A stretch of 64,000 nucleotides of DNA from an uncultured Leptospirales bacterium (GCA_964529415.1 CAZGWD010000002.1:30089-94088); one strand, 5' to 3'; shown: positions 3,535 to 29,637, numbered from the stretch's first letter. Numbers and translations: made by a program. The notes: a model not told the origin generated them from the letters alone.

Positions 3535-5628
3535 TTATACCACATCCATGCAAATAATACAGACATCATCATCGAAGTCTTCTGAACCGCGAAAGGAGAT
3601 AAGGTTTTCTACCAGAGTCTTTACAAACCGGCCTGACGGCAAAGACTCGCTTTGCTTCAACACCTGATACAGCTGTGCAGACTCAAAATCGACCAATGCT
3701 CCGGAACGGGTCTGGATATCGGCCATGCTCACAGCTTCTGTGAGACCATCTGTATACAGCAGAATTTTATCGCCAGGGTTCAAATCTATTGAGTCGTTGC
3801 TGAAAAAACGATTTTTTTCAGCCAGTTTTTCCCCGCTGAAGACGGCAAGGGGCATCATATGCCGTGTTGACAATACACTTTCAACATTTCCATGACGGAT
3901 AATAAACGGGTGATTGTGCCCGCAGTTGCAATAAGTGAATCTCCGGGTTTCCAGGTCCATAATTCCGTAAAATGCTGTAACGAAATTTCCCGCAGTCTGG
4001 TTAACAAGTATGCGGTTAAGATGCTCCATGAGAACAGACGGGTCCAGGCTCTGTGAGCCTATCTGCAAAAGAGCGCTTTTAATCATGGATGTAATAAATG
4101 CAGCCGGCACTCCGTGGCCGGAAACATCGCTTATGAAGATGCCGATATTTCTGCTGTCACGGAAACGTATAAAATCGTAAAAATCACCCCCGACCTGATC
4201 CATAGGCCTGTAGTAAAAAGAAATATCAGGAGACGGGCTCTGCGATGGAATAAACTGTTTCTGAATGCGTTTTGCCATCATCAGCTCATTTTCTATTACT
4301 TCGCTGCGCGCCTCGAGCAGTTTTTTCTTCTGGTTCAGCTCTGATGTCCGATCGTCTATTTTCCTGTCAAGATCGCGGTTCAGCTGCTGCAGGTCTGCTG
4401 ATGTATTCTGCAAATCATGGTACATGCGCGCCTGTTCCCAGGCCAGTATAAAAAAAATACTTATCACCATGAAGAGATAACCGTATGAGCTGAGCCATGC
4501 ATAGGGCATCAGCTGGTTTCTAAGGAATACGAGATCGTGGATGCTTGCTGCAAAAACCACCAGATGCCCTGCAAGCAGGAATATCGCATCTTTTTTTTTG
4601 CGCACACAGGATATTGAAAGAATCACGATATTAAAAATAATAAGTGGAGCTATTACCAGGAGCATGGTCAGCGAAAAGACTTTTTCCACTCCTGTCTTGG
4701 TATCAGGGATGAGAGTGACCAGAGCCATAAAAGGAGCAGGCAGAATAGTAATAAGCCGAACCGCTAAATTGCTGCTTAAGATTCCTGTAAAGCGCAAAGC
4801 CAATTGTGAAAGAAACATGACCACCATGGGAAAGGCAGCCTTGGATATCTTTTCAATGAGAAGTTCATCCGCAGCGTTATGTGAAAAAAGAAAATTGATA
4901 CGGGAAAGAAAAAAGAACAGACATACCATTGAAAAATACAGATAGCGAATATCGCGGTCCTCACGGGTTAAGAAATAAAAAAGGAAAAATATAAAAAGAA
5001 ACAGCGATACAAATGATGATCCCTTGATAAACTGGTTATAAAACATTTCCTTCCAGAATGCCCTTGCAGAATTCAGACTGTAAGTGGAAACATACATCTG
5101 CTGAAATGGAAAAATCTCATATCCCGTAAAAACTTCAACTGCTATGCGGTTGGGTGCATCACCGAAACGCAGCAGATTTCGTGACAGATATACATCTGAA
5201 GGCGACATGACAGCTGTATCATATGTTGATGTGTGAGTTCCTCTTCGGTGCAGAGCAATACCGTTAATGTAAACCACATACGAATATTTGGTTGGCCCTA
5301 TGTATAGAGAAAGCGGAGTATCGCGGAGCTGTTCATCCACTTTAAACTCTCCAATAAAAGTATACATGCGGTTATTAAGATCTTTCTCGCGTGGAAGCTG
5401 GCGAAAGTCATAAAGCCTGAACCCTGCATCTGCAATATTACTCTGTATATACCGCCCTTCTTCCAGAGCGCTTTCCAGAATGTATAAATCCGGAGACAGT
5501 TCCAGACGTGTTGGTGTGAGTACAGGCATTTCAGAAGCCAACAGGATGCCTGAATGCGACAATAACAGGAGAATACCGGCCATTACTATCAGGCCGGGTT
5601 TTGTCAACCTGCATATAATTTTTATCAA
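3535..5628 (-). CDS. 7TMR-DISM receptor fused to a PP2C/SpoIIE-type serine phosphatase (RsbU-like)
   Basis: N-terminal signal/TM and an approximately 180-aa extracellular domain, then about 7 TM helices and a coiled coil. The C-terminal PP2C motifs are GGDFYDF...DVSGHGVPAA...YTDGLTE. Confidence 0.75.
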   Translation of the reverse strand: MIKIICRLTKPGLIVMAGILLLLSHSGILLASEMPVLTPTRLELSPDLYILESALEEGRYIQSNIADAGFRLYDFRQLPREKDLNNRMYTFIGEFKVDEQLRDTPLSLYIGPTKYSYVVYINGIALHRRGTHTSTYDTAVMSPSDVYLSRNLLRFGDAPNRIAVEVFTGYEIFPFQQMYVSTYSLNSARAFWKEMFYNQFIKGSSFVSLFLFIFFLFYFLTREDRDIRYLYFSMVCLFFFLSRINFLFSHNAADELLIEKISKAAFPMVVMFLSQLALRFTGILSSNLAVRLITILPAPFMALVTLIPDTKTGVEKVFSLTMLLVIAPLIIFNIVILSISCVRKKKDAIFLLAGHLVVFAASIHDLVFLRNQLMPYAWLSSYGYLFMVISIFFILAWEQARMYHDLQNTSADLQQLNRDLDRKIDDRTSELNQKKKLLEARSEVIENELMMAKRIQKQFIPSQSPSPDISFYYRPMDQVGGDFYDFIRFRDSRNIGIFISDVSGHGVPAAFITSMIKSALLQIGSQSLDPSVLMEHLNRILVNQTAGNFVTAFYGIMDLETRRFTYCNCGHNHPFIIRHGNVESVLSTRHMMPLAVFSGEKLAEKNRFFSNDSIDLNPGDKILLYTDGLTEAVSMADIQTRSGALVDFESAQLYQVLKQSESLPSGRFVKTLVENLISFRGSEDFDDDVCIICMDVV

Positions 5629-20369: not shown

Positions 20370-21851
20370 ATGGTACTATTATTACTTAAATTATATAATG
20401 TGGAGATGTCTACCATCAGTACCATCGGGACATATATGTATAACTTTTTTGTTGTACTCGCAGTAGCTGCGGTAATAATTCTTGTATACAGGAAGCTTGC
20501 ATCTATGGGATACCCCATAGTCCGGTTAAGGATATTTTTTATTATTATTTCCGTAACAGGACTGCCTTCAGGATTCATCAGCTCGCGCTCAGCCAATCTA
20601 TTCTATTATCCGTCGCAGCTGTGGACCCCGGAACTGTTATGGGAACTGGCATCCTCCAGAACAGCCCATACATTTCATGCAGGAATAATTCTTCCAGCAG
20701 TATTGATCATGCTGCTTATTCTAATCATGCAGTTTAAATTTCTCCGCACACTGGACACATTTTTTCTTTTTCTTCCGATAGGAAATGCCATAGGCAGATT
20801 AGCCTGTTTAAACGTAGGTTGTTGCTGGGGGAATTATATTCCTCTGATCCATTTCAATAATCCAACCCCTTTCTATGACATTCTTTGCAATGTGGGAATT
20901 TTCATCATATTGCGAAAAATTCATAAAGGCATGTATCTTTCAGGCAACCCCGATGAAGATTCCCGCGAAAGTGGAAAAATAACCGCTTTGTATTTAGTAA
21001 TGTATGGTGTATGCAGGTTTTTAATGGAATACTTCCGCACTGAGGAAATAATACGATGGGGATTAACCCAGGCTCAGATCGTGATGATTATTTTCATTAT
21101 ACTGGGAATTTTAATCCTGATTTTTATAACAATAAAAAACCTTCCAAAACCGGTTGCAGCAGCCAAGCCCATAAAACAGATGAAGTATTTTTATCCCGCT
21201 GCTTTTGTCGCATATTTCCTTATTTTCTTTTTGTTAATCACATTGCTTTTCTTTTCAGATATTGCTTCGTGGCCGCTTCGTCCTGCGGTCAGCGCACTGA
21301 AGCAATACCTTTCTGTATTATGGTTTCTTCCGATTTTCATTATTGAGATGAGCGCTATATTCTTTCTTGTTATAACAAAAATAGACTGGCGCCATTCATT
21401 TAAAATAAACAGGAAGGATTTTCGTGATCCGTTTTTTATCACAGGCGTGATAGTAAGTATAGCCTATGCTGCGTCTGTTTATATAATAAATATTTCTAAT
21501 GAAGAAAATGCAATACGGGGTATCGCATACTGGCCCCCTGTTGCGATTTTGTGTGCTCTCAATGCATTGTCTGAGGAAGTCTTTTTCCGTATGATTATTT
21601 TCAGACTTCTTGAAAAATCTGCTGTAAAACCTGTTGCAGCAAACCTGATACAGAGCCTGCTGTATTCAAGCGTGCATTTGGCAATCGGAGGCCCGAAGTT
21701 TGCTCTTTACAGCTTCGTTTACGGCATGCTGCTCGGCCAGATCTATAAACGAACCGGAAGTATAATTCCTCCGATAATATGCCATATTATTATTGATATA
21801 GGTGTAATTGGATATCCTATTCTTCAATACTGCGTATGTATAAACCGTTGA
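20370..21851 (+). CDS. lgt: Fusion of prolipoprotein diacylglyceryl transferase (Lgt) with a CPBP/CAAX-type intramembrane protease
   Basis: The N-terminal half has the Lgt signature GRLACLNVGCCWG. The C-terminal half has the three CPBP motifs EEVFFR, SSVHL and CHIIID (EExxxR, FxxxH, HxxxD). Confidence 0.65.
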   Translation: MVLLLLKLYNVEMSTISTIGTYMYNFFVVLAVAAVIILVYRKLASMGYPIVRLRIFFIIISVTGLPSGFISSRSANLFYYPSQLWTPELLWELASSRTAHTFHAGIILPAVLIMLLILIMQFKFLRTLDTFFLFLPIGNAIGRLACLNVGCCWGNYIPLIHFNNPTPFYDILCNVGIFIILRKIHKGMYLSGNPDEDSRESGKITALYLVMYGVCRFLMEYFRTEEIIRWGLTQAQIVMIIFIILGILILIFITIKNLPKPVAAAKPIKQMKYFYPAAFVAYFLIFFLLITLLFFSDIASWPLRPAVSALKQYLSVLWFLPIFIIEMSAIFFLVITKIDWRHSFKINRKDFRDPFFITGVIVSIAYAASVYIINISNEENAIRGIAYWPPVAILCALNALSEEVFFRMIIFRLLEKSAVKPVAANLIQSLLYSSVHLAIGGPKFALYSFVYGMLLGQIYKRTGSIIPPIICHIIIDIGVIGYPILQYCVCINR

Positions 21852-21943: not shown

Positions 21944-23791
21944 ATGAACCCGTTATCCCTATTGTCTTTCTTTGCTTTTCTGGTATGTCTTTATTTCGGA
22001 CTGCATACTATCCGGAAAGAACCAGGCGCAATTCTCAACCGCGTTTTTTTTGTTTATTGCCTTACAGGTCAGATATGGTCTTTTGGTTATGTCTTCGTTT
22101 ACTCGGCAACTGTTCCTGCTGATATATGGTTCTGGTATAGATTTTCCTCTTTCGGCTGGTGCTTTATACACTCAACCCTGCTGCTGTTTATACTGATTCT
22201 GACAGGCAAAAAAAAGCCCCTTTTCAAATGGTGGATTTACATTTTAATCTACACACCTTCAATAGTTCTTCTTTACCGTTCATTAACCGGCATACTTATT
22301 GCAAAGGAATTTTATCCGACTCCATGGGGCAACGCCGAGATACTTGCATCCGATACTTTATGGTTTAACTTATATGCAGTCTACAACATCACATATCTTA
22401 TTCTCGGATGCGTAATTTTATGGAGATGGGCCGGAGCATCAGAATACACCCGCCATAAAAAGCAGGCAAAAATCATAATTATAAGCACCTTGTCATGCTT
22501 TATTGCAGCTTCATTTTGCAATATGGTAATTCCTGCAATGAAAATAAAATTTCCGGCCATTGGTGCGATATTTGCACTGGGAATCATTTTCGGAGCATGG
22601 TGGGCCATGTCGCGATACAAACTTCTAGTTATAACGCCGGAAATTGCTGCAGGCGAGATCATTTCAAAGATGATGGACATAATGATTCTTTCAGATGCAC
22701 AGGATAATATTATTTCTGTAAACAGGCAGACTGAAGATTTGCTCGGATACAGTTCAAACGAATTAAAGAAAAAGTCGTTGCTTGATCTAATTTACGAAAG
22801 TGAAGCATTCATTGAAAAATTAAAACCGGTCAAGAATGCCAAAAATACAAACTTTCAATTCGACGGCAATCTGATAACACACAAGGAAACGCACATACCA
22901 GTTAAAATTTTCTGTTCAGACATTAAAGACATGGCTGGAGAAGTTGTAGGTATAGTTGCGGTAGCTCATGATCAGCGGGATACGATCAATCTCGAATCGA
23001 CACTTAAAGAACTGCAGAAGACAAACCAGACATTAATTTTAACCAGGGATGCCCTCTGGGGTGAAATGCAGATTGCTAAAAAAATCCAGACAGTGCTTCT
23101 TCCTCTGAAACCAAAAATACATGGTTATCAGATTTCGGCATATCTTAAACCAGCTGATGAAGTCGGCGGAGATTATTATGATGTATTAAATATTGACGGA
23201 AGAGACTGGCTTATAATCGGAGATGTTTCCGGTCACGGGGTTCCAGCCGGGCTTGTAATGATGATGGTACAAACCGCTATACACGTAACCATAATAAATT
23301 TTCCGGATATAGCTCCTTCCGAGCTGCTATATAAAATCAACACTGCAATAACCGGCAACATCAATAAAATGGGCGAAAATAAGTATATGACGATCACAGT
23401 TTTCGCAATTCATCAGGGCGGGGAATTGACTTTCTCCGGACTGCATCAGGACCTGTTAATTTACCGCAATGCAACAGATACTATAGATGTTATTGAAACA
23501 AACGGAACGTGGATAGGAATTACGGATAATATCCGCGGAATAATGAAAGATGATTTCATCAAAATGGAAATTGGAGATATTCTGCTTCTGTTTACTGATG
23601 GTATTACAGAGTCTTGTGAAAAAAGAACTAAAAACGGAATCTGTATGTTTGGCGATGACAAACTAATAGAAACCTTTCACAAATCATGTAAAAAACAGGT
23701 GAAAGAAATATCAGATAGCATTATTGATGCTCTTGTAAATTACGAATGCACGGATGATATCACGATTGTGATTTTAAGAAGAGATCAATAG
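21944..23791 (+). CDS. Membrane sensor PP2C/SpoIIE phosphatase (N-terminal 7TM, PAS, PP2C)
   Basis: About 7 TM helices, a PAS-like segment (DIMILSDAQDNIISVNRQTEDLLGYSSNEL), and PP2C motifs (GGDYYDV...GDVSGHGVPAG...FTDGITE). Confidence 0.75.
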   Translation: MNPLSLLSFFAFLVCLYFGLHTIRKEPGAILNRVFFVYCLTGQIWSFGYVFVYSATVPADIWFWYRFSSFGWCFIHSTLLLFILILTGKKKPLFKWWIYILIYTPSIVLLYRSLTGILIAKEFYPTPWGNAEILASDTLWFNLYAVYNITYLILGCVILWRWAGASEYTRHKKQAKIIIISTLSCFIAASFCNMVIPAMKIKFPAIGAIFALGIIFGAWWAMSRYKLLVITPEIAAGEIISKMMDIMILSDAQDNIISVNRQTEDLLGYSSNELKKKSLLDLIYESEAFIEKLKPVKNAKNTNFQFDGNLITHKETHIPVKIFCSDIKDMAGEVVGIVAVAHDQRDTINLESTLKELQKTNQTLILTRDALWGEMQIAKKIQTVLLPLKPKIHGYQISAYLKPADEVGGDYYDVLNIDGRDWLIIGDVSGHGVPAGLVMMMVQTAIHVTIINFPDIAPSELLYKINTAITGNINKMGENKYMTITVFAIHQGGELTFSGLHQDLLIYRNATDTIDVIETNGTWIGITDNIRGIMKDDFIKMEIGDILLLFTDGITESCEKRTKNGICMFGDDKLIETFHKSCKKQVKEISDSIIDALVNYECTDDITIVILRRDQ

Positions 23792-23862: not shown

Positions 23863-25242
23863 ATGAAACCATTTCAGATTTTAGACAGCCAGATTAAAGG
23901 ATGGAAATCAATTATAAAACAATTGGAACATCCATATTTTTCATATTTTCTAATGAGATTTATCGCTCATCCCAAATTATTTTATGAAACTGATGCCAAT
24001 AAAGATAACAGGTATGGTTTTATGAAAGCAGGCGGAGGTTATGCAACGCCCAGAGAGCTGATTGCTCAAAAATATATGATAAAGGCTTTCCTGGAATCTG
24101 CAGGGGAAGCACGCACAGCGGATTTAAACAATGAACCTGTAATCTGGTTTGACTGGCCGGCTCCTGTAGAAATACTGAAGGCATTTAATGTTGCTTATTT
24201 CTGTCAGTCATTTTTCATGTTCGCATCACAGAGCAAAGGCGGACGGGGCGTAATAGAACAAATTGACGCCTGTGAGGATGAAAGAATAACCTCTGATTTA
24301 TGCAGTATGACCAGGATCTCATTCGGCGCCTATTTAACGGAGCAAATACCACGTCCGTCAGCTATTATAGGCACCGCCCACCCCTGTGATTCCGCCAGAA
24401 GTGTAAATCAGCTTTATGATTATTATACAGGTGTTCCAACATTTACTCTGGATACGCCGTATGGAAGGGATGAAGATTCACTTAACCATTACGCAGAAAA
24501 CGTATGGGAGATGATACGGTTTCTGGAGAACCATCTTGGAAAAAAAATAAACTGGGATAAACTAAAAAGCGTCATAGAAGAAGTAAATAAATATAATTAT
24601 TATTTCAGGGAAGTTACAATGATGCATAGAGCTATACCATCTCCCGGACTGGTTTTGCCTGAAATAATATCCTGGATAACAAATATATTTGCCTCTGGCT
24701 CCAAAAACCTGACTGCAATGGCAAAAATATATTATGAAATTTCAAAGAGAAGGATTAAAAAACCAAATTTTTTACGGGCAAGGAAGGAGAAAATAAGGGT
24801 TTTAATATGCGATACAACAGTGGTATTTACAGAGCTGTTCAGCTGGATGAAAAAAGAATTTGGCGCTGTTGTAGTCGGGGATTATGTTGGGGATAGAATA
24901 AACCCTGAAATTGATACATCTACACATGAGTCAATGGTAAAAGGGATTGCAGCGGATAAATTGTATATGGGCATGATAAGGCAGGCGCATGGTCCTATTG
25001 AATTTACCACAGAGGAATTAACAAGAAATATTGAAAATTTTTCAGCAGACTGCGTTATTTTCAATGGGCATATAAGCTGTAAATTCAACAGCTCTTCTCA
25101 AAAAATAATTAAAGATACATGCAAAAAAGCTGGAGTACCAGCACTTTTTATGGAGGTTGATATTTATGACCAGAGGGTAGTTCCGGAAAAAGAGATGCAG
25201 CGTCAAATTAAAGAATTTTTTGTTACAAATGGATTGATATAA
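23863..25242 (+). CDS. 2-hydroxyacyl-CoA dehydratase / benzoyl-CoA reductase family subunit (HGD-D fold), large
   Basis: 459 aa with HgdB/BcrB-like organisation (...PVEILKAFNVAYF...). First gene of a tight operon. Confidence 0.7.
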   Translation: MKPFQILDSQIKGWKSIIKQLEHPYFSYFLMRFIAHPKLFYETDANKDNRYGFMKAGGGYATPRELIAQKYMIKAFLESAGEARTADLNNEPVIWFDWPAPVEILKAFNVAYFCQSFFMFASQSKGGRGVIEQIDACEDERITSDLCSMTRISFGAYLTEQIPRPSAIIGTAHPCDSARSVNQLYDYYTGVPTFTLDTPYGRDEDSLNHYAENVWEMIRFLENHLGKKINWDKLKSVIEEVNKYNYYFREVTMMHRAIPSPGLVLPEIISWITNIFASGSKNLTAMAKIYYEISKRRIKKPNFLRARKEKIRVLICDTTVVFTELFSWMKKEFGAVVVGDYVGDRINPEIDTSTHESMVKGIAADKLYMGMIRQAHGPIEFTTEELTRNIENFSADCVIFNGHISCKFNSSSQKIIKDTCKKAGVPALFMEVDIYDQRVVPEKEMQRQIKEFFVTNGLI

Positions 25243-26391
25243 ATGCAAACACTAAAAGAGATAAAACAAATTTCAGAAAGTTTATTTAATTCACATCTTG
25301 AAAAAGCGAAGCAGGATGGAAAAAAAATAATAGGATATTTCTGTACTTATGTTCCAGAAGAGCTTATTCACGCAGCCGGTTTTATACCATATCGCATGCG
25401 TGCGGTCGGAAGCACGGGAACTACGTTAGGGGATACATACTATTCTTCAAAAAACTGCAGTTACGTGAGACATTGCTTTGATCTGGCACTGCAGGGAAAT
25501 TTTCATTTCCTGGATGGAGTCATTTTCATGAACGGCTGCGATCACAACAGAAGGATGTATGACAACTGGAGATATGCTGGAATTAAACCTGATTTTCTTT
25601 ATATGCTGCCTGTGCCGTATGTTCTTGCTGATCCATCTCTTAAACAGTATATTAATGAAATCAACAAGCTGAAAAAAAATATTGAAGACTATTATAAAAT
25701 AAATATTACTGATGAAGCTCTTGAAAAAGCCATAAAACTATATAATAAAAAAAGAAATCTGTTATCCGGAATATATGAAACCAGAAAACAGAAAAATGTT
25801 CCTATTAAAGGAAGCGAACTCCTTAGTGTAATGCTTGCAGTTACCGCGCTTCCTGTTGAAACCGCCAATGACATGTTAGAAAAGATTTTAATCGAATTAG
25901 ACGGCAGAGTGATATCAAATGACAATGATATAAGATTGTTTATTGCCGGAAACTGCATTGAAGAAAGTGAGCATATGGAATTAATTGAAGATTGCGGAGG
26001 TGTTATTGTTTCAGATAAAACATGTCTTGGTTCTGATTATATTGATTCAAATATCAAGGAAGACCTCGACCCTATTGTTGAAATTTCCAGAAGATATCTT
26101 AACCATCTTTCCTGTCCAAGAATGGTAGATGATTTTAGAAATAGATTAAAACATCTCGATACAATGATTAACCTTTATGATGTTGATGCTGTTATTCTGG
26201 ACAAGCTTGAGTTCTGTACATTGTTTACAATGGAATCTGTTTTATACCGCAAGGAATTAAAAAAAACAGGGCTTCCCGTACTTGCTTTTGACCGGGAATT
26301 CTACGGGGGCGGAACAGGACAGATTAAAACAAGAGTACAGGCATTTTTTGAAAAAGTAAGAAACAGACAAAAGACTTCAAAGGGCTTATGA
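25243..26391 (+). CDS. 2-hydroxyacyl-CoA dehydratase / benzoyl-CoA reductase family subunit (HGD-D fold), small
   Basis: 382 aa. It has the N-terminal motif IIGYFCTYVPEELIHAAGFIPYR, characteristic of HgdA/HgdB/BcrC with the cluster-ligand Cys. Its start abuts the upstream stop (TAAATG). Confidence 0.75.
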   Translation: MQTLKEIKQISESLFNSHLEKAKQDGKKIIGYFCTYVPEELIHAAGFIPYRMRAVGSTGTTLGDTYYSSKNCSYVRHCFDLALQGNFHFLDGVIFMNGCDHNRRMYDNWRYAGIKPDFLYMLPVPYVLADPSLKQYINEINKLKKNIEDYYKINITDEALEKAIKLYNKKRNLLSGIYETRKQKNVPIKGSELLSVMLAVTALPVETANDMLEKILIELDGRVISNDNDIRLFIAGNCIEESEHMELIEDCGGVIVSDKTCLGSDYIDSNIKEDLDPIVEISRRYLNHLSCPRMVDDFRNRLKHLDTMINLYDVDAVILDKLEFCTLFTMESVLYRKELKKTGLPVLAFDREFYGGGTGQIKTRVQAFFEKVRNRQKTSKGL

Positions 26392-26434
26392 AAGTATAAC
26401 AAATTGAAATTAATAATGTTTTTAAGGAATAAAA

Positions 26435-27214
26435 ATGATATTTGCCGGTTGTGATGTAGGTTCGCTGACCGCGAAAGCGGTTATCATTGAAAATTCCAGG
26501 ATTATTTCCAGGAAAATAATCCGCGCAAAAGCGACTGCCCTTAAATCTGCTAACGATGTAATGAATGAGGCATTACATGATATTGGACTTGAAATAAAAG
26601 ATATTGATTTTTGCTGCAGTACAGGGTATGGAAGATTTTCCATTCCCTACTCGAATATAAATAAAAGTGAAATATCCTGCCATGGTCTCGGCGCATTCTG
26701 GGTTGATAACTCTATAAGAACTGTAATAGATATCGGCGGACAGGATTGCAAAGCAGTTTCGATTGACGAGAATGGACTGGTTAACGATTTCATGATGAAT
26801 GAAAAATGCGCAGCAGGAACAGGCAGGAGTCTTGAAATTTTTTCCAGGACATTGGGACTTGAACTTGATGAACTTGGACCAATTTCACTTGAATCAAAAA
26901 AAAAGATTGAGATATCAAATAAATGCAGCATTTTCATGGAACTGGATATAATACAGCAGCTATATCATAAAAGTAAAAAATGTGATATAGCGCGGGCCGT
27001 CAACAGCGCTGTAGCCCAAAGGGTTATTCACCTTGCAAGATCAATAGATATAAAACCTGATATTTGCATAACAGGCGGGGTCTCAAAAAATGCAGGTGTT
27101 GTAAAAATACTTGAAGAACTCCTGAATATGAAATTTAAAATTTTATCAGAGGATCCTCAATTGATTGGAGCAATAGGCGCTGCTGTTTTTGCAGAACAGG
27201 AATATAAATTATAA
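26435..27214 (+). CDS. CoA-substrate-specific enzyme activase (HgdC/BcrA/BcrD-type ASKHA ATPase), copy 1
   Basis: Alignable throughout to HgdC: CDVGSLTAK...TGYGR...DIGGQDCKAV...EKCAAGTGR...CSIFME...ITGGVSKN. Both [4Fe-4S]-bridging cysteines are present. Confidence 0.85.
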   Translation: MIFAGCDVGSLTAKAVIIENSRIISRKIIRAKATALKSANDVMNEALHDIGLEIKDIDFCCSTGYGRFSIPYSNINKSEISCHGLGAFWVDNSIRTVIDIGGQDCKAVSIDENGLVNDFMMNEKCAAGTGRSLEIFSRTLGLELDELGPISLESKKKIEISNKCSIFMELDIIQQLYHKSKKCDIARAVNSAVAQRVIHLARSIDIKPDICITGGVSKNAGVVKILEELLNMKFKILSEDPQLIGAIGAAVFAEQEYKL

Positions 27215-27278
27215 ATCCGGCATTTGATGATGAACTATTCCAGTTGACAATTATAATAACACAAGGAAAAGGCAAAGT

Positions 27279-28076
27279 ATGATAACCATGGGCTATGATA
27301 TTGGAACCCGGTTTATAAAAACATGCATAGTGGAAGATAACAAAATATTAGGCTTTTCGATCAGGGAAACCGGCATGGATTTAAAAAAATCGATTGATGA
27401 ATCTTCTTTTTCTGCAATTGAAATGGCAGGTATAAAAAAAAGAAAAATAGCAAAATCAGCAGCTACAGGTTATGGATGTGAAATGCTTGAAAAAACAGCC
27501 GCCACAATCAGTGAGGATGTATGCCTTGTAAAAGCGGCATATCACCTTGACAGGAATATCAATACTGTTATTGATGTTGGCGGATTATTTATTCATATAG
27601 CTACTGTCATCAGTGGAGGACGGGTCGGGGATCATTGCGAAAATGAAAAGTGTGCAGCAGGAAGCGGAAAATTTCTTGAGATAATTTCAGAAGCAGTTGA
27701 TATTCCTATTGCATCAATTTCTGAAACTGCATTAAAATCATCAAATCCATATGCCCTGTCAAACAGCTGTTCGGTATTTGCCGAGAGTGAAGTTATTTCT
27801 CAAATAAATGCAGGCACTGACAGTTCTGATATTATTGCAGGTGTCATCAATACTATAGCTGAAAAAATTGCAACTTTGATAAACAGGATCGAGGCTCCTG
27901 ATAAAATTGCAGTTGCAGGCGGAGTGGCAAAAATAGAAGCCTTTAGAATAATACTTGAGAAGGTCTTAAACAGAAAAATTTTCACTTTGCCTGTAGATTT
28001 TCAAATTGTTACAGCATATGGAGCAGCATTGCATGCCCAGGATAAACCTGTAAAAAAGAACAAGAGAAAAAACTGA
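27279..28076 (+). CDS. CoA-substrate-specific enzyme activase paralogue, copy 2 (divergent nucleotide motif)
   Basis: Same fold (YDIGTRFIK...TGYGCE...EKCAAGSGK...CSVFAESEVISQ...AGGVAK). DVGGLFIHIA replaces the DIGGQD motif. Both cluster cysteines are retained. Confidence 0.8.
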   Translation: MITMGYDIGTRFIKTCIVEDNKILGFSIRETGMDLKKSIDESSFSAIEMAGIKKRKIAKSAATGYGCEMLEKTAATISEDVCLVKAAYHLDRNINTVIDVGGLFIHIATVISGGRVGDHCENEKCAAGSGKFLEIISEAVDIPIASISETALKSSNPYALSNSCSVFAESEVISQINAGTDSSDIIAGVINTIAEKIATLINRIEAPDKIAVAGGVAKIEAFRIILEKVLNRKIFTLPVDFQIVTAYGAALHAQDKPVKKNKRKN

Positions 28077-28852
28077 TGTTTGCTGAACAACAGAAAGAAT
28101 CAAAAAATATATCAGAATTTCAGGACCATTCTTATCTTATTAAAAAATGTTATGATCTGCTATACGATGCTGAAAATAATTTTACAGAATACAAGTGGAA
28201 AAATATAAAGGATTTAAAAAAAACAGGTTTTAATAAAAAAAAGAAAGGGAAATCTTTTATTGTAATGGCAGAAGATACATCAGTTGAACTTGGTTCACCT
28301 GAAAATATCTCAATAAGCTGTGTCTTGTGGACTAAAGAAAATTTGCTTATCAAGAATAGCATATGGATTGCCGGAAAGGAATTATCGCAAATCAAGGGGA
28401 AATCTGTATCATTTCTGCAGGTTATAATGATTCAGCCGGGTGATGAAGATGATCCGACTGACCCGCTGCTTCAGGGATTAAAAAACCTTTCAAATAAAAT
28501 TCCAGGATTAATGACACGCAGTATAACCGGTAAAATGTGGATACGAATACATAAAGATCTGATGAAAAAAAAATTCACTCTGTATTCTTTGGGTAAATAT
28601 CTGCACGAAGCATATAAAGAATCAATGCCGAATATTAAAGGAATTGATATTATTCTATGTGCTGATGATCCGCAGATTATTTCAAAATTTGAGCCAATCT
28701 ATAAAACAACAAAAATAATCAACGGTGAAAATCAAAAACTAAAATGGGTAGAAGATGGTGTTGTATCCTGTGAAGAGCTTAATTGCAATACCTGCGAAGA
28801 ACAACCGGCGTGTGATATAATTAAAGATATTGTTGTAAAAAGGAAAAAGTAA
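28076..28852 (+). CDS. Cys-rich protein of unknown function (C-terminal Cx4Cx2Cx5C)
   Basis: Its start overlaps the upstream stop (TGATG). The C-terminus reads SCEELNCNTCEEQPACD. No recognisable family. Confidence 0.5.
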   Translation: MFAEQQKESKNISEFQDHSYLIKKCYDLLYDAENNFTEYKWKNIKDLKKTGFNKKKKGKSFIVMAEDTSVELGSPENISISCVLWTKENLLIKNSIWIAGKELSQIKGKSVSFLQVIMIQPGDEDDPTDPLLQGLKNLSNKIPGLMTRSITGKMWIRIHKDLMKKKFTLYSLGKYLHEAYKESMPNIKGIDIILCADDPQIISKFEPIYKTTKIINGENQKLKWVEDGVVSCEELNCNTCEEQPACDIIKDIVVKRKK

Positions 28853-28854
28853 AA

Positions 28855-29637
28855 TTGGAAAAAATAAATAAAAATAAATCTCCGGTAATTATTGCATACC
28901 TGGGTAAAGGCGGATCAGGAAAATCGATCCTTTCATCTATAACGGGTAAGATTGCCATTAATAAAAAGAAAAAAATACTTTTTATAGATGCCGATCCTGC
29001 TATGGGTTTAGCTACTGCTCTGGGAATAGATGGATTTAAGACAATAGGAGAGGCACGGGAAGAGATAATACAACAGGCTAAAATATCAAACACCGATGAA
29101 CATGTTTCAGAGATTATTGATTACCTGCTTCTTGAAGCTCTTTTCGAAACAAAAGATTTCAGCATGATAGTTATGGGGCAAACGCAAACAATTGGATGTT
29201 ACTGCCCAATCAATAATCTTTTAAAGGATACAATTGAAAAAATTTCATCTCATTATGATGTTGTTATTATTGATGCTGAAGCAGGCATTGAGCAGATTAA
29301 CAGACAGGTAACAGAGTCAGTTCATTACCCTTTAATTGTTACAGATAATTCCGTAAGAGGAGTACGAACTGCCATGCTTGTAAATGATGCCATTAAGCGG
29401 GCTCCAAAAATGACTCCAATCAATTCAGGGGTAATTTTCAACCGTATTGAAGGCGATGTTGATCATGATCTTCTGGAGATGATTAAAGGCGGATCTTTAT
29501 CCTTTTACGGCTCAATCCCTGCTGATAAAATTATTACTGAAAGAGACATGAAAGGTTTATCAGCACTGGAAATGCCGGAAGAAGCCATATCCATCAAGGC
29601 TCTTGAATTGATATTGAATAAAACAGGCATTTTATAA
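28855..29637 (+). CDS. CooC/AcsF-family metallocentre-insertion ATPase (MinD/ParA superfamily)
   Basis: Deviant Walker A (GKGGSGKS), IDADP, the signature CxC motif (TIGCYCP), and Walker B (DAEAGIEQ). It starts 3 nt after the upstream stop. Confidence 0.8.
   Translation: MEKINKNKSPVIIAYLGKGGSGKSILSSITGKIAINKKKKILFIDADPAMGLATALGIDGFKTIGEAREEIIQQAKISNTDEHVSEIIDYLLLEALFETKDFSMIVMGQTQTIGCYCPINNLLKDTIEKISSHYDVVIIDAEAGIEQINRQVTESVHYPLIVTDNSVRGVRTAMLVNDAIKRAPKMTPINSGVIFNRIEGDVDHDLLEMIKGGSLSFYGSIPADKIITERDMKGLSALEMPEEAISIKALELILNKTGIL

Follow-up and report, generated by a model that had tools for sequence, protein, structure and literature searches.

A benzoyl-CoA-reductase-like gene set with an acetyl-CoA-synthase-derived protein and a CooC-like ATPase in an uncultured Leptospirales bacterium

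We have studied a group of six genes at positions 23863-29637 of a 64,000-nucleotide stretch of DNA (the window) from an uncultured Leptospirales bacterium. An earlier interpretation made from the sequence alone (the sequence-only reading) had described an operon here, and an ORF check placed all six reading frames at the coordinates and with the lengths that it gave. The genes are closely spaced on the plus strand. The first, g1 (23863-25242, 459 aa), encodes a large HGD-D subunit and directly abuts g2 (25243-26391, 382 aa), which encodes a small one. After a gap of 43 nt follows g3 (26435-27214, 259 aa), an ASKHA ATPase of the BcrAD/HgdC type, and after a further 64 nt g4 (27279-28076, 265 aa), a second, divergent ATPase of the same type. 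The last two genes encode a homologue of the A2 (middle) domain of acetyl-CoA synthase (ACS; g5, 28076-28852, 258 aa) and a CooC-like ATPase of the MinD/NifH superfamily (g6, 28855-29637, 260 aa, with a TTG start). Overlaps of 1 to 3 nt had been reported for this end of the operon. There is one overlap of 1 nt, between g4 and g5 (TGATG), but g5 and g6 are separated by a 2-nt spacer.

Both HGD-D subunits match the corresponding Pfam family (PF06050, cut-off 28.4 bits), g1 at 1e-52 (180 bits) and g2 at 4e-90 (303 bits). The solved structures nearest to g1 are DCCP (6ENO; 37 bits) and MbdO (9G87_A). Residues C147, C175 and C406 are predicted to form a three-ligand [4Fe-4S] site. Across 73 relatives the first two are invariant, but the third varies, 53 of the proteins having Cys at position 406 and 20 having His. 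The position three residues beyond C175, equivalent to His131 of BzdO, is Ala in the window and is His in none of the 73. E103 is kept in 64 of them; since it sits in a P-x-E segment that is also present in g2 (P38, E40) and in BzdN, it does not mark out a catalytic subunit. g1 is nonetheless the predicted catalytic subunit.

The top PDB match of g2 is BzdN (8S02_B; 131 bits), with DCCP second (114 bits, in a full-length alignment). Six cysteines (C34, C72, C99, C261, C291 and C325) correspond in the alignments to the ligand cysteines of both proteins, of which there are six, and are invariant in all 67 relatives. The NCBIfam double_cubane model (NF040772) gives 223 bits, below its cut-off of 350. 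We predict from these signatures that g2 is an electron-storage subunit carrying an [8Fe-9S] double cubane.

The ATPase g3 matches BcrAD_BadFG at 1e-52, and scores 245 bits against the activase model TIGR00241 (cut-off 125) and 181 bits against bzdQ; for g4 the values are 1e-27 for BcrAD_BadFG and 166 bits for TIGR00241. The two proteins are 32% identical in an ungapped comparison. Each contains the cluster cysteines C125 and C164, and together they would share one [4Fe-4S] cluster. The canonical GGQD motif of g3 is replaced by GGLF in g4, and this motif is degenerate in all 21 of the g4-type relatives. The presence of two distinct ATPases, and of a subunit nearest to BzdN with its six ligand cysteines, upholds the proposal that the first four genes form a benzoyl-CoA-reductase (BCR)-like ensemble of four subunits, and not a dehydratase that has a single activator. 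By sequence g1-g4 look like an enzyme of the class I BCR type. The family assignments of the sequence-only reading were likewise borne out by HMM searches, in which HGD-D matched g1 and g2, BcrAD_BadFG matched g3 and g4, and CbiA matched g6.

The product of g5 had been described as Cys-rich. It does contain seven cysteines, four of them in the C-terminal motif C232-X4-C237-X2-C240-X5-C246, but this is an understatement that missed the nature of the body of the protein. g5 matches Pfam CdhC at 5e-9, and the NCBIfam CdhC/ACS models at 31-49 bits, far under their cut-offs of 356-809. An AF2 model (pLDDT 81.5) was compared with the PDB using Foldseek. All 22 matches at E ≤ 0.001 were ACS/CdhC chains, the best having E about 3e-9 (2.6e-9) with ~160 residues aligned. 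Residues 64-206 align with residues 18-162 of M. thermophila ACS. The Cys motif begins ~25 residues past the end of the A2 homology, i.e., at the point where the A3 domain starts in ACS (residue 186; PMC11474084). The protein ends 12 residues beyond the motif and lacks an A3 domain and the Cys-Gly-Cys nickel site, no CGC being found on scanning the sequence, and a profile of the C-terminal region gave no match to ACS. In 70 relatives C237, C240 and C246 are invariant, and C232 is found in 49. The family comprises 487 representatives at E ≤ 1e-3 in a search of 1.84 billion proteins; the best 150 of these are 95-319 aa in length, mostly near 250 aa. Judged by sequence and model, g5 is a homologue of the ACS A2 domain with a conserved Cys motif after it.

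g6 matches the AAA_31, CbiA and NifH-type P-loop models of Pfam/NCBIfam. It contains a deviant Walker A motif (GKGGSGKS), DADP and DAEAG motifs, and a CXC motif (G-C115-Y-C117) that holds its sole cysteines; all of these, the CXC included, are invariant in 28 relatives. Both the sequence and the family profile give CooC1 (3KJE) as the top PDB match, with the CXC aligned. The profile scores 81.6 bits for CooC1 over its full length, compared with 58.6 for MinD and about 31 for NifH. In an AF2 model (pLDDT 92) the cysteines lie at the N-terminus of helix 117-131, a dimer-interface position. This model is equally near NifH/BchL and CooC1, and fold searches do not tell CooC, MinD, FleN and NifH apart. 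By sequence profile g6 is CooC-like, with CooC1 its top-scoring match and the CXC metal motif kept, but by fold alone it is not distinguished from the wider superfamily.

We have also examined the conservation of this arrangement. Among 80 genomes found through g6, g5 lies directly upstream of it in 72. HGD-D and ATPase genes adjoin the g5-g6 pair in 42 of the 45 loci having at least 6 kb of flanking sequence on both sides. The full set spans Thermodesulfobacteriota, Myxococcota, Spirochaetota and Chloroflexota, and is also present in Actinomycetota, Bacillota, Gemmatimonadota and Gammaproteobacteria. The linkage is a direct observation and is not random, which upholds the sequence-only reading on the association of this clade of ATPases with HGD/BCR genes. 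Because it is conserved across phyla, the six-gene arrangement is far beyond chance. No paper describing the pairing of g5-g6 with a BCR-type enzyme was found in the literature searched, in agreement with the claim that it belongs to no described pathway. The pairing of such an enzyme with an ACS fragment and a CooC-like ATPase recurs in many bacterial phyla.

The loci vary in makeup. Several have a single g5-g6 pair beside two sets of enzyme genes or a number of g1 paralogues, which would be expected of a shared accessory factor. In some loci (L002, L008, L015, L017, L019-L024) the g3-g4-g5-g6 block is intact while g1 and g2 shift around it. Roughly half of the related clusters contain a single ATPase gene, and in one locus a gene for a NifS/IscS-like class-V aminotransferase follows g5-g6. 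The neighboring genes, which would fit a substrate of the acyl-CoA type, encode CoA ligases, thiolase-like proteins, acyl-CoA dehydrogenases, GMC/FAD oxidoreductases and ferredoxins. The 25 commonest families among 135 flanking ORFs include no CODH/ACS families, HGD-D and BcrAD genes being found there instead, and the same census revealed no nickel transporters or other signs of nickel handling.

What might be the function of g5 and g6? The sequence-only reading had proposed that a double cubane would need a dedicated maturation ATPase. This is not supported, as BzdNO and DCCP both acquire [8Fe-9S] clusters when produced in E. coli (PMC11971306, PMC7317905). Since double cubanes assemble in that host without a maturase, the reason offered there for the linkage is weak. 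The ancestry of g5 changes the picture, however, in that g5-g6 looks like the remnant of a client-maturase pair of ACS with AcsF/CooC.

The explanation that we prefer, with a probability of about 0.5, is that g1-g4 form an ATP-dependent radical enzyme of the class I BCR type, served by g5-g6 as a dedicated maturation or accessory pair. By homology with BzdNOPQ and DCCP, the g3/g4 heterodimer would receive an electron from a ferredoxin-type donor at its bridging [4Fe-4S] cluster, and ATP hydrolysis would bring this electron to a very low potential. It would next be stored in the [8Fe-9S] double cubane of g2, and then move on to g1 and its open-site [4Fe-4S] cluster, at which a putative acyl-CoA thioester may be reduced or transformed via a ketyl radical. 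g5 and g6 would be descended from ACS and an AcsF/CooC-type maturase. The two CXC motifs of a g6 dimer could hold between them a metal ion or an Fe-S unit, which is let go on hydrolysis of ATP, and g5, with its A2 domain and three- to four-Cys site, may act as a docking adaptor or as a transient scaffold for metal, steering delivery to the reductase or repairing the clusters of that enzyme. Maturation of a metal center, with a putative metal and target, is our best guess for the role of the pair, at roughly even odds.

Alternatively, g5 and g6 might function in electron transfer. In bcr and bzd operons a ferredoxin gene comes after the ATPase genes, and g5 takes this position. It would then be a [4Fe-4S] protein feeding electrons to g3/g4, with g6 a NifH/BchL-like dimer that has a bridging [4Fe-4S] cluster on its 2x2 cysteines and uses ATP to gate or energize this transfer. 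The constancy of the g3-g4-g5-g6 block is in keeping with this, and the C-X2-C-X5-C spacing in g5 suits [4Fe-4S] binding, as occurs in endonuclease III and WhiB-type proteins. The closeness of the g6 model to NifH/BchL and the interfacial location of its cysteines point in the same direction. However, the g6 profile prefers CooC1 over NifH by 50 bits, and NifH-type donors have two separated cysteines and no CXC. A second ATP-using step in addition to the archerase would be without precedent and costly in energy. Moreover, g5-g6 follow g1 rather than an ATPase gene in the Chloroflexota-type clusters, and in one genome g5 lies apart from g1-g4 and g6, on another contig. We consider electron transfer to be unlikely.

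A different question concerns the core enzyme, which might be of the 2-hydroxyacyl-CoA dehydratase type, requiring ATP-driven activation only in catalytic amounts and not acting as a stoichiometric reductase. HadB shares the Ala that the window has in place of BzdO His131 (PMC11971306), and His never occurs there in the clade. The single ATPase gene of many related clusters and the degenerate nucleotide motif of g4 would also fit, and in three relatives a GlcD-like FAD dehydrogenase with CCG/Fe-S subunits, encoded immediately downstream, could make or use 2-hydroxy acids. Yet g2 has its top score with BzdN and retains six ligands throughout, whereas in dehydratases the double cubane is lost from the beta subunit, which has three cysteines and a [4Fe-5S] cluster (PMC11971306). 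The HadB and HadC equivalog models score 17-132 bits overall; HadB reaches 41 bits (cut-off 750) and HadC 132 bits (cut-off 700). A dehydratase seems to us doubtful.

We have considered two further roles for g5 and g6. The first, which we think rather improbable, is that g6 loads nickel or another heterometal into the three- to four-Cys site of g5, a minimal metalloprotein derived from ACS, or alternatively that the two constitute a second CooC-type, ATP-driven stage of electron injection before the archerase. If such loading were true, the BCR/dehydratase family of radical enzymes would have in this widespread clade its first branch that depends on nickel or a heterometal. The second is that they are permanent structural or regulatory subunits, g5 binding the CoA of the substrate or docking partners and g6 acting as an ATP-dependent switch for assembly or positioning that delivers no metal. 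Tight one-to-one gene pairing with translational coupling would suit such subunits, as would the ATP-dependent dimerization switches typical of MinD/ParA relatives, but the invariant CXC of g6 and the three invariant cysteines of g5 point to metal chemistry, and in some loci one g5-g6 pair must suffice for two enzyme sets. We regard this as a poor prospect. Coincidental adjacency, with g6 serving as CooC for a CO dehydrogenase whose gene lies elsewhere in the genome, would accord with the JGI label 'CO dehydrogenase maturation factor' carried by many relatives, but is effectively refuted by the synteny with HGD-D and ATPase genes, which is seen in 42 of the 45 well-flanked loci and spans eight or more phyla, and by the absence of CODH/ACS families from the 25 commonest of the neighbor census.

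How do these genes compare with known systems? To our knowledge no bzd or bcr operon contains an ACS-like or CooC-like gene. The BzdNOPQ enzyme of the Azoarcus type (BzdNO is PDB 8S02; PMC11971306) likewise combines two HGD-D subunits with two different ASKHA ATPases, and the double cubane of BzdN stores electrons from the ATPase module. g2 shares the six-Cys signature of BzdN, and g1 has a three-ligand site like that of BzdO. Scores against the Bzd equivalogs are nonetheless low (135 against 454 for bzdN, 32 against 449 for bzdO, and 181 and 111 against 380 for bzdQ), and all the NCBIfam bzdN/O/P/Q and bcrA-D models give 16-181 bits, below cut-offs of 313-578. The equivalent of the catalytic His131 of class I BCR is missing from g1, and with it the Glu65 + His131 acid/base combination.

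DCCP with its partner DCCP-R (PDB 6ENO, 7YYL; PMC7317905) receives electrons in an ATP-dependent manner through an HgdC-type ATPase, as is predicted here, and g2 aligns with it over the full length and shares the six ligand cysteines. DCCP forms a homodimer, bears a 7-Cys motif, works with one ATPase and has no ACS-like or CooC-like partners, whereas g2, with six of the seven cysteines, is predicted to form a heterodimer with a distinct large subunit. The dehydratases HadBC/HadI and HgdAB/HgdC belong to the same protein families and have an open-site [4Fe-4S] cluster in the catalytic subunit; as in g1, a residue other than His stands where BzdO has His131. They employ a single homodimeric activator, in contrast to the two different ATPase genes of the window, where g2 keeps the ligands of the second cubane.

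The deviant Walker A, switch and CXC motifs of CooC1/AcsF (3KJE), ATPases that insert nickel into CODH and ACS, align with those of g6, whose gene directly follows one derived from ACS. No association of g6 with CODH or ACS genes was seen among the 25 commonest families of the neighbor census. g5 has the A2 fold of ACS/CdhC, but is without the A1 domain as well as the A3 domain and its nickel site. The cluster cysteines of ACS are spaced C-X2-C-X8-C-X9-C, differing from the C-X4-C-X2-C-X5-C of g5, in which three of the cysteines are universally conserved.

The six open reading frames of the operon lie on the + strand at exactly the positions assigned to them in the sequence-only reading. The genes g1 (23863-25242; 459 aa) and g2 (25243-26391; 382 aa) encode HGD-D proteins, g3 (26435-27214; 259 aa) and g4 (27279-28076; 265 aa) BcrAD/HgdC-type ATPases, g5 (28076-28852; 258 aa) a homologue of the central (A2) domain of acetyl-CoA synthase (ACS), and g6 (28855-29637; 260 aa) a CooC-like ATPase with a TTG start preceded by AGGAAAAAG. 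g1 and g2 abut with no gap, spacers of 43 and 64 nt separate g2 from g3 and g3 from g4, g4 overlaps g5 by one base (TGATG), and 2 nt lie between g5 and g6. A promoter and terminator scan gave a result no better than shuffled sequence, so that a single transcript and the operon boundaries are deduced only from gene spacing. An Rfam scan found no upstream riboswitch, its sole match being one tRNA-Gly elsewhere.

The operon sequence is identical across four metagenome runs, and its neighbourhood is ordinary chromosome, with efflux pump genes, ftsA and ftsZ; a gene for a BspA-type LRR protein lies downstream. Within the window the operon has no gene for a CoA ligase, nor any other catabolic gene, beside it. 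A 7TM-receptor protein with a PAS domain and a terminal SpoIIE/PP2C phosphatase domain (21944-23791, + strand) ends 71 nt upstream and could be a local regulator of the operon. Another 7TM-receptor protein ending in a SpoIIE/PP2C phosphatase domain is encoded at 3535-5628 (- strand), and a single 493-aa reading frame at 20370-21851 (+ strand) fuses an Lgt (prolipoprotein diacylglyceryl transferase) domain to a CPBP/Rce1-like intramembrane protease domain.

The enzyme encoded by g1-g4 is a separate clade of the family comprising benzoyl-CoA reductases (BCR), 2-hydroxyacyl-CoA dehydratases (HAD) and double-cubane cluster proteins (DCCP), and not a known enzyme; none of the four subunits reaches an NCBIfam equivalog cut-off. 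g3 and g4 both score above the TIGR00241 cut-off. They share 32% identity without gaps, and the cluster cysteines C125 and C164 are kept in both. The nucleotide motif GGQD (its place in g4 is approximately residues 101-104) is retained by 71 of 75 g3-type subunits, and is replaced by GGLF or GGQS in all 21 g4-type subunits among the relatives in L001-L091. This pattern of substitution points to a heterodimer that is asymmetric, one of its ATP sites being degenerate.

g1 is far more divergent than g2, scoring 37 bits against DCCP. Its C147 and C175 are present in 73 of 73 relatives, and position 406 is Cys in 53 of these and His in 20. This is the three-ligand pattern of an open-site [4Fe-4S] cluster, as in BzdO and HadB, and part of the clade may carry a His-ligated cluster in g1. 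The position equivalent to the catalytic His131 of BzdO (Cys+3) is never His across the clade, and is Ala in the window, which makes canonical Birch reduction of benzoyl-CoA unlikely as the chemistry of g1. Two or three g1 paralogues are found upstream of g6 (at ~10000 in local coordinates) in the related loci L048, L058, L065, L068, L072, L075, L083 and L087. Such multi-g1 loci (e.g., L048 and L058) have a single g2, a single ATPase set and a single g5-g6 pair, and would fit alternative catalytic subunits working on one shared electron-delivery module.

The core enzyme might alternatively employ a dehydratase-type activation mechanism. Among solved structures g2 matches BzdN, from the Azoarcus-type benzoyl-CoA reductase, best (131 bits) and DCCP second. 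Six cysteines of g2 (C34, C72, C99, C261, C291 and C325) align with the [8Fe-9S]-ligating cysteines of the DCCP motif, and they are invariant in all 67 g2-like proteins of the related loci; DCCP has a seventh Cys that is not a ligand, and this one is missing from g2, as from BzdN (motif from PMC7317905). Dehydratase beta subunits have lost the second cubane (PMC11971306), whereas g2 keeps all six cysteines and is thus reductase-like. From homology with BzdNOPQ and DCCP we infer an electron path g3/g4 to g2 to g1. The g3/g4 dimer would take in an electron and deliver it, driven by ATP, to the double cubane of g2; from there it would pass to the open-site cluster of g1, where an acyl-CoA would be reduced or put through ketyl-radical chemistry.

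g5 had been described from the sequence simply as a Cys-rich protein. A Cys motif is indeed present, but the similarity to ACS identifies what the protein is. It matches Pfam CdhC at 5e-9, its residues 63-230 match NCBIfam CdhC/ACS models (far under their cut-offs), and its top PDB sequence match is the M. thermophila ACS beta subunit, residues 18-162. An AlphaFold model was built with 14 homologues as input (pLDDT 81.5) and compared with the PDB using Foldseek. All 22 matches at E ≤ 0.001 were ACS/CdhC chains, the best having E ~3e-9 with ~160 residues aligned.

The A2 homology is followed by a helix and then by C232-X4-C237-X2-C240-X5-C246. All 70 members of the g5 family that were compared have C237, C240 and C246, and 49 of them also have C232. 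The A2 domain of M. thermophila ACS comprises residues 4-151, and A3 begins at residue 186 (PMC11474084); linear extrapolation from these limits places the Cys motif where A3, the cluster-binding domain, would start. Its position, in a region modelled at low confidence, is consistent with a remnant of the A-cluster binding motif. A profile of the C-terminal Cys region searched against the PDB returned designed coiled coils only, and nothing in ACS. Compared with ACS, g5 lacks the remainder of A3 and the Cys-Gly-Cys nickel site. An exhaustive profile search of 1.84 billion proteins gave 487 representatives of the g5 family at E ≤ 1e-3, the best 150 of which are 95-319 aa long, mostly ~250 aa. 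Neither Pfam (2025 copy) nor NCBIfam release 20 holds a model specific to g5 or to the g6 clade; the g5 family is real, yet uncurated.

The association of g5 and g6 with the enzyme was surveyed by scanning one genome per species with a g6 alignment. The scan gave 80 loci and covers the g6 clade (32-63% identity) rather than CooC-like proteins at large. The loci are spread over Thermodesulfobacteriota and other Deltaproteobacteria, Myxococcota, Spirochaetota, Chloroflexota, Actinomycetota, Bacillota, Gemmatimonadota and Gammaproteobacteria; one belongs to an isolate, Desulfoluna limicola ASN36, whose related cluster (L074) lies at about 2.90-2.92 Mb of NZ_AP024488.1. Genes were labelled by comparing six-frame reading frames with HMMs of the six window proteins, labels that are noisy in high-GC loci. 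In 72 of the 80 loci the gene immediately before g6 is a g5 homologue. Flanks of 6 kb or more on either side are available for 45 loci, and 42 of these have g5, HGD-D and ATPase genes together; the other three comprise one rearranged set, one g5-g6 alone and one g6 alone. Look-ups via g5 homologues, independent of the g6 survey, gave the same picture. A Spirochaetes MAG that has the six genes in the same order supplies the closest homologue of g1 (56% identity). Elsewhere the order varies (g1-g2-g3-g4-g5-g6; g3-g4-g5-g6 with g1/g2 divergent or downstream; g3-g2-g1-g5-g6; g5-g6-g2-g1-g3), and g5-g6 is the constant pair. Clusters with a single ATPase gene and clusters with two are about equally common, and several loci with two to three g1 paralogues or two enzyme sets have a single g5-g6 pair. 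The synteny data exclude chance adjacency of g5-g6 with the reductase genes, and on the same data we reject g6 as the CooC of a distant CODH.

Some individual loci depart from this arrangement. In GCA_024224995.1, g1-g4 and g6 lie together (L093 3703-8935) and the g5 homologue is on a separate contig (L010 10001-10774), adjoining a gene for a solute-binding protein, which shows that g5 and g6 are separable. In L046 (9123-12113) g5-g6 has no HGD-D or ATPase gene within ~9 kb, and after it comes a class-V aminotransferase (379 aa) from the family to which the NifS/IscS cysteine desulfurases belong, a hint of Fe-S assembly. Recurrent 672-aa reading frames after g6 in high-GC loci had no Pfam match and are probably spurious antisense frames.

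In a Pfam census of 135 flanking reading frames the leading families were CoA ligases, thiolase-like proteins, FAD/GMC oxidoreductases, acyl-CoA dehydrogenases and ferredoxins, and the top 25 included none for CODH, ACS or nickel transport. Chloroflexota-type clusters (L025 2936-5669) are preceded by genes for a thiolase-like protein, an OB-fold/zinc-ribbon protein of the ChsH2 type and an acyl-CoA dehydrogenase, a combination typical of beta-oxidation of the side chains or rings of CoA esters. Three relatives have a gene trio after g6 (L001 11646-15722; L007 11561-15853; L093 8978-12551), encoding a CCG-domain protein, a GlcD-like FAD dehydrogenase and a Fer4_8+CCG protein, with DUF6125 next in two of the three; the trio may be an electron-input or 2-hydroxy-acid module. 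In one cluster type a ~490-aa protein with no Pfam match, absent from the window, is encoded directly upstream of g2 (L074 2706-4172 in D. limicola; L069 3667-5130; L084 3602-5134), with 29% identity between L074 and L069. It is preceded by a TetR regulator and a GMC-type FAD oxidoreductase in L069, and by a GMC oxidoreductase in L074, where the check covered this gene only.

The most economical reading, to which we give a probability of about one half, is that g5-g6 is a dedicated pair for maturation or repair of a metal centre, descended from an ACS and AcsF/CooC pair. g6 would be an ATP-driven chaperone for a metal or cluster, and g5 an adaptor or scaffold derived from ACS. The main objection is that BzdNO and DCCP gain their double cubanes in E. 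coli without help of the g5-g6 kind (PMC11971306, PMC7317905), so either the clade holds something different or g5-g6 has another role. One such role would be electron input: g5, placed where the operon would have its ferredoxin gene, would be an Fe-S donor, and g6 would act in a NifH-like manner; another would be as permanent structural subunits. Since the operon is compact, co-expression can test the question of g5-g6 directly.

In the paper library searched we found no description linking CooC, AcsF or a CO dehydrogenase maturation factor to double-cubane, BCR, HAD or BadF proteins. The Haft selenoprotein preprint and the isoprene reductase paper, considered as prior descriptions, both concern other systems. 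The operon combines a known enzyme family with an undescribed, conserved accessory module. Either there is a metal centre new to the BCR/HAD/DCCP family, or CooC-type ATPases are active outside CO metabolism; each, if true, would be a novelty in the enzymology of Fe-S and nickel proteins. The ATP-driven Fe-S radical enzymes of this family perform some of the lowest-potential chemistry in biology. To our knowledge the enzyme and its ATPase suffice in its known members, and the present clade has two extra genes, g5 and g6, in representative genomes of at least eight phyla.
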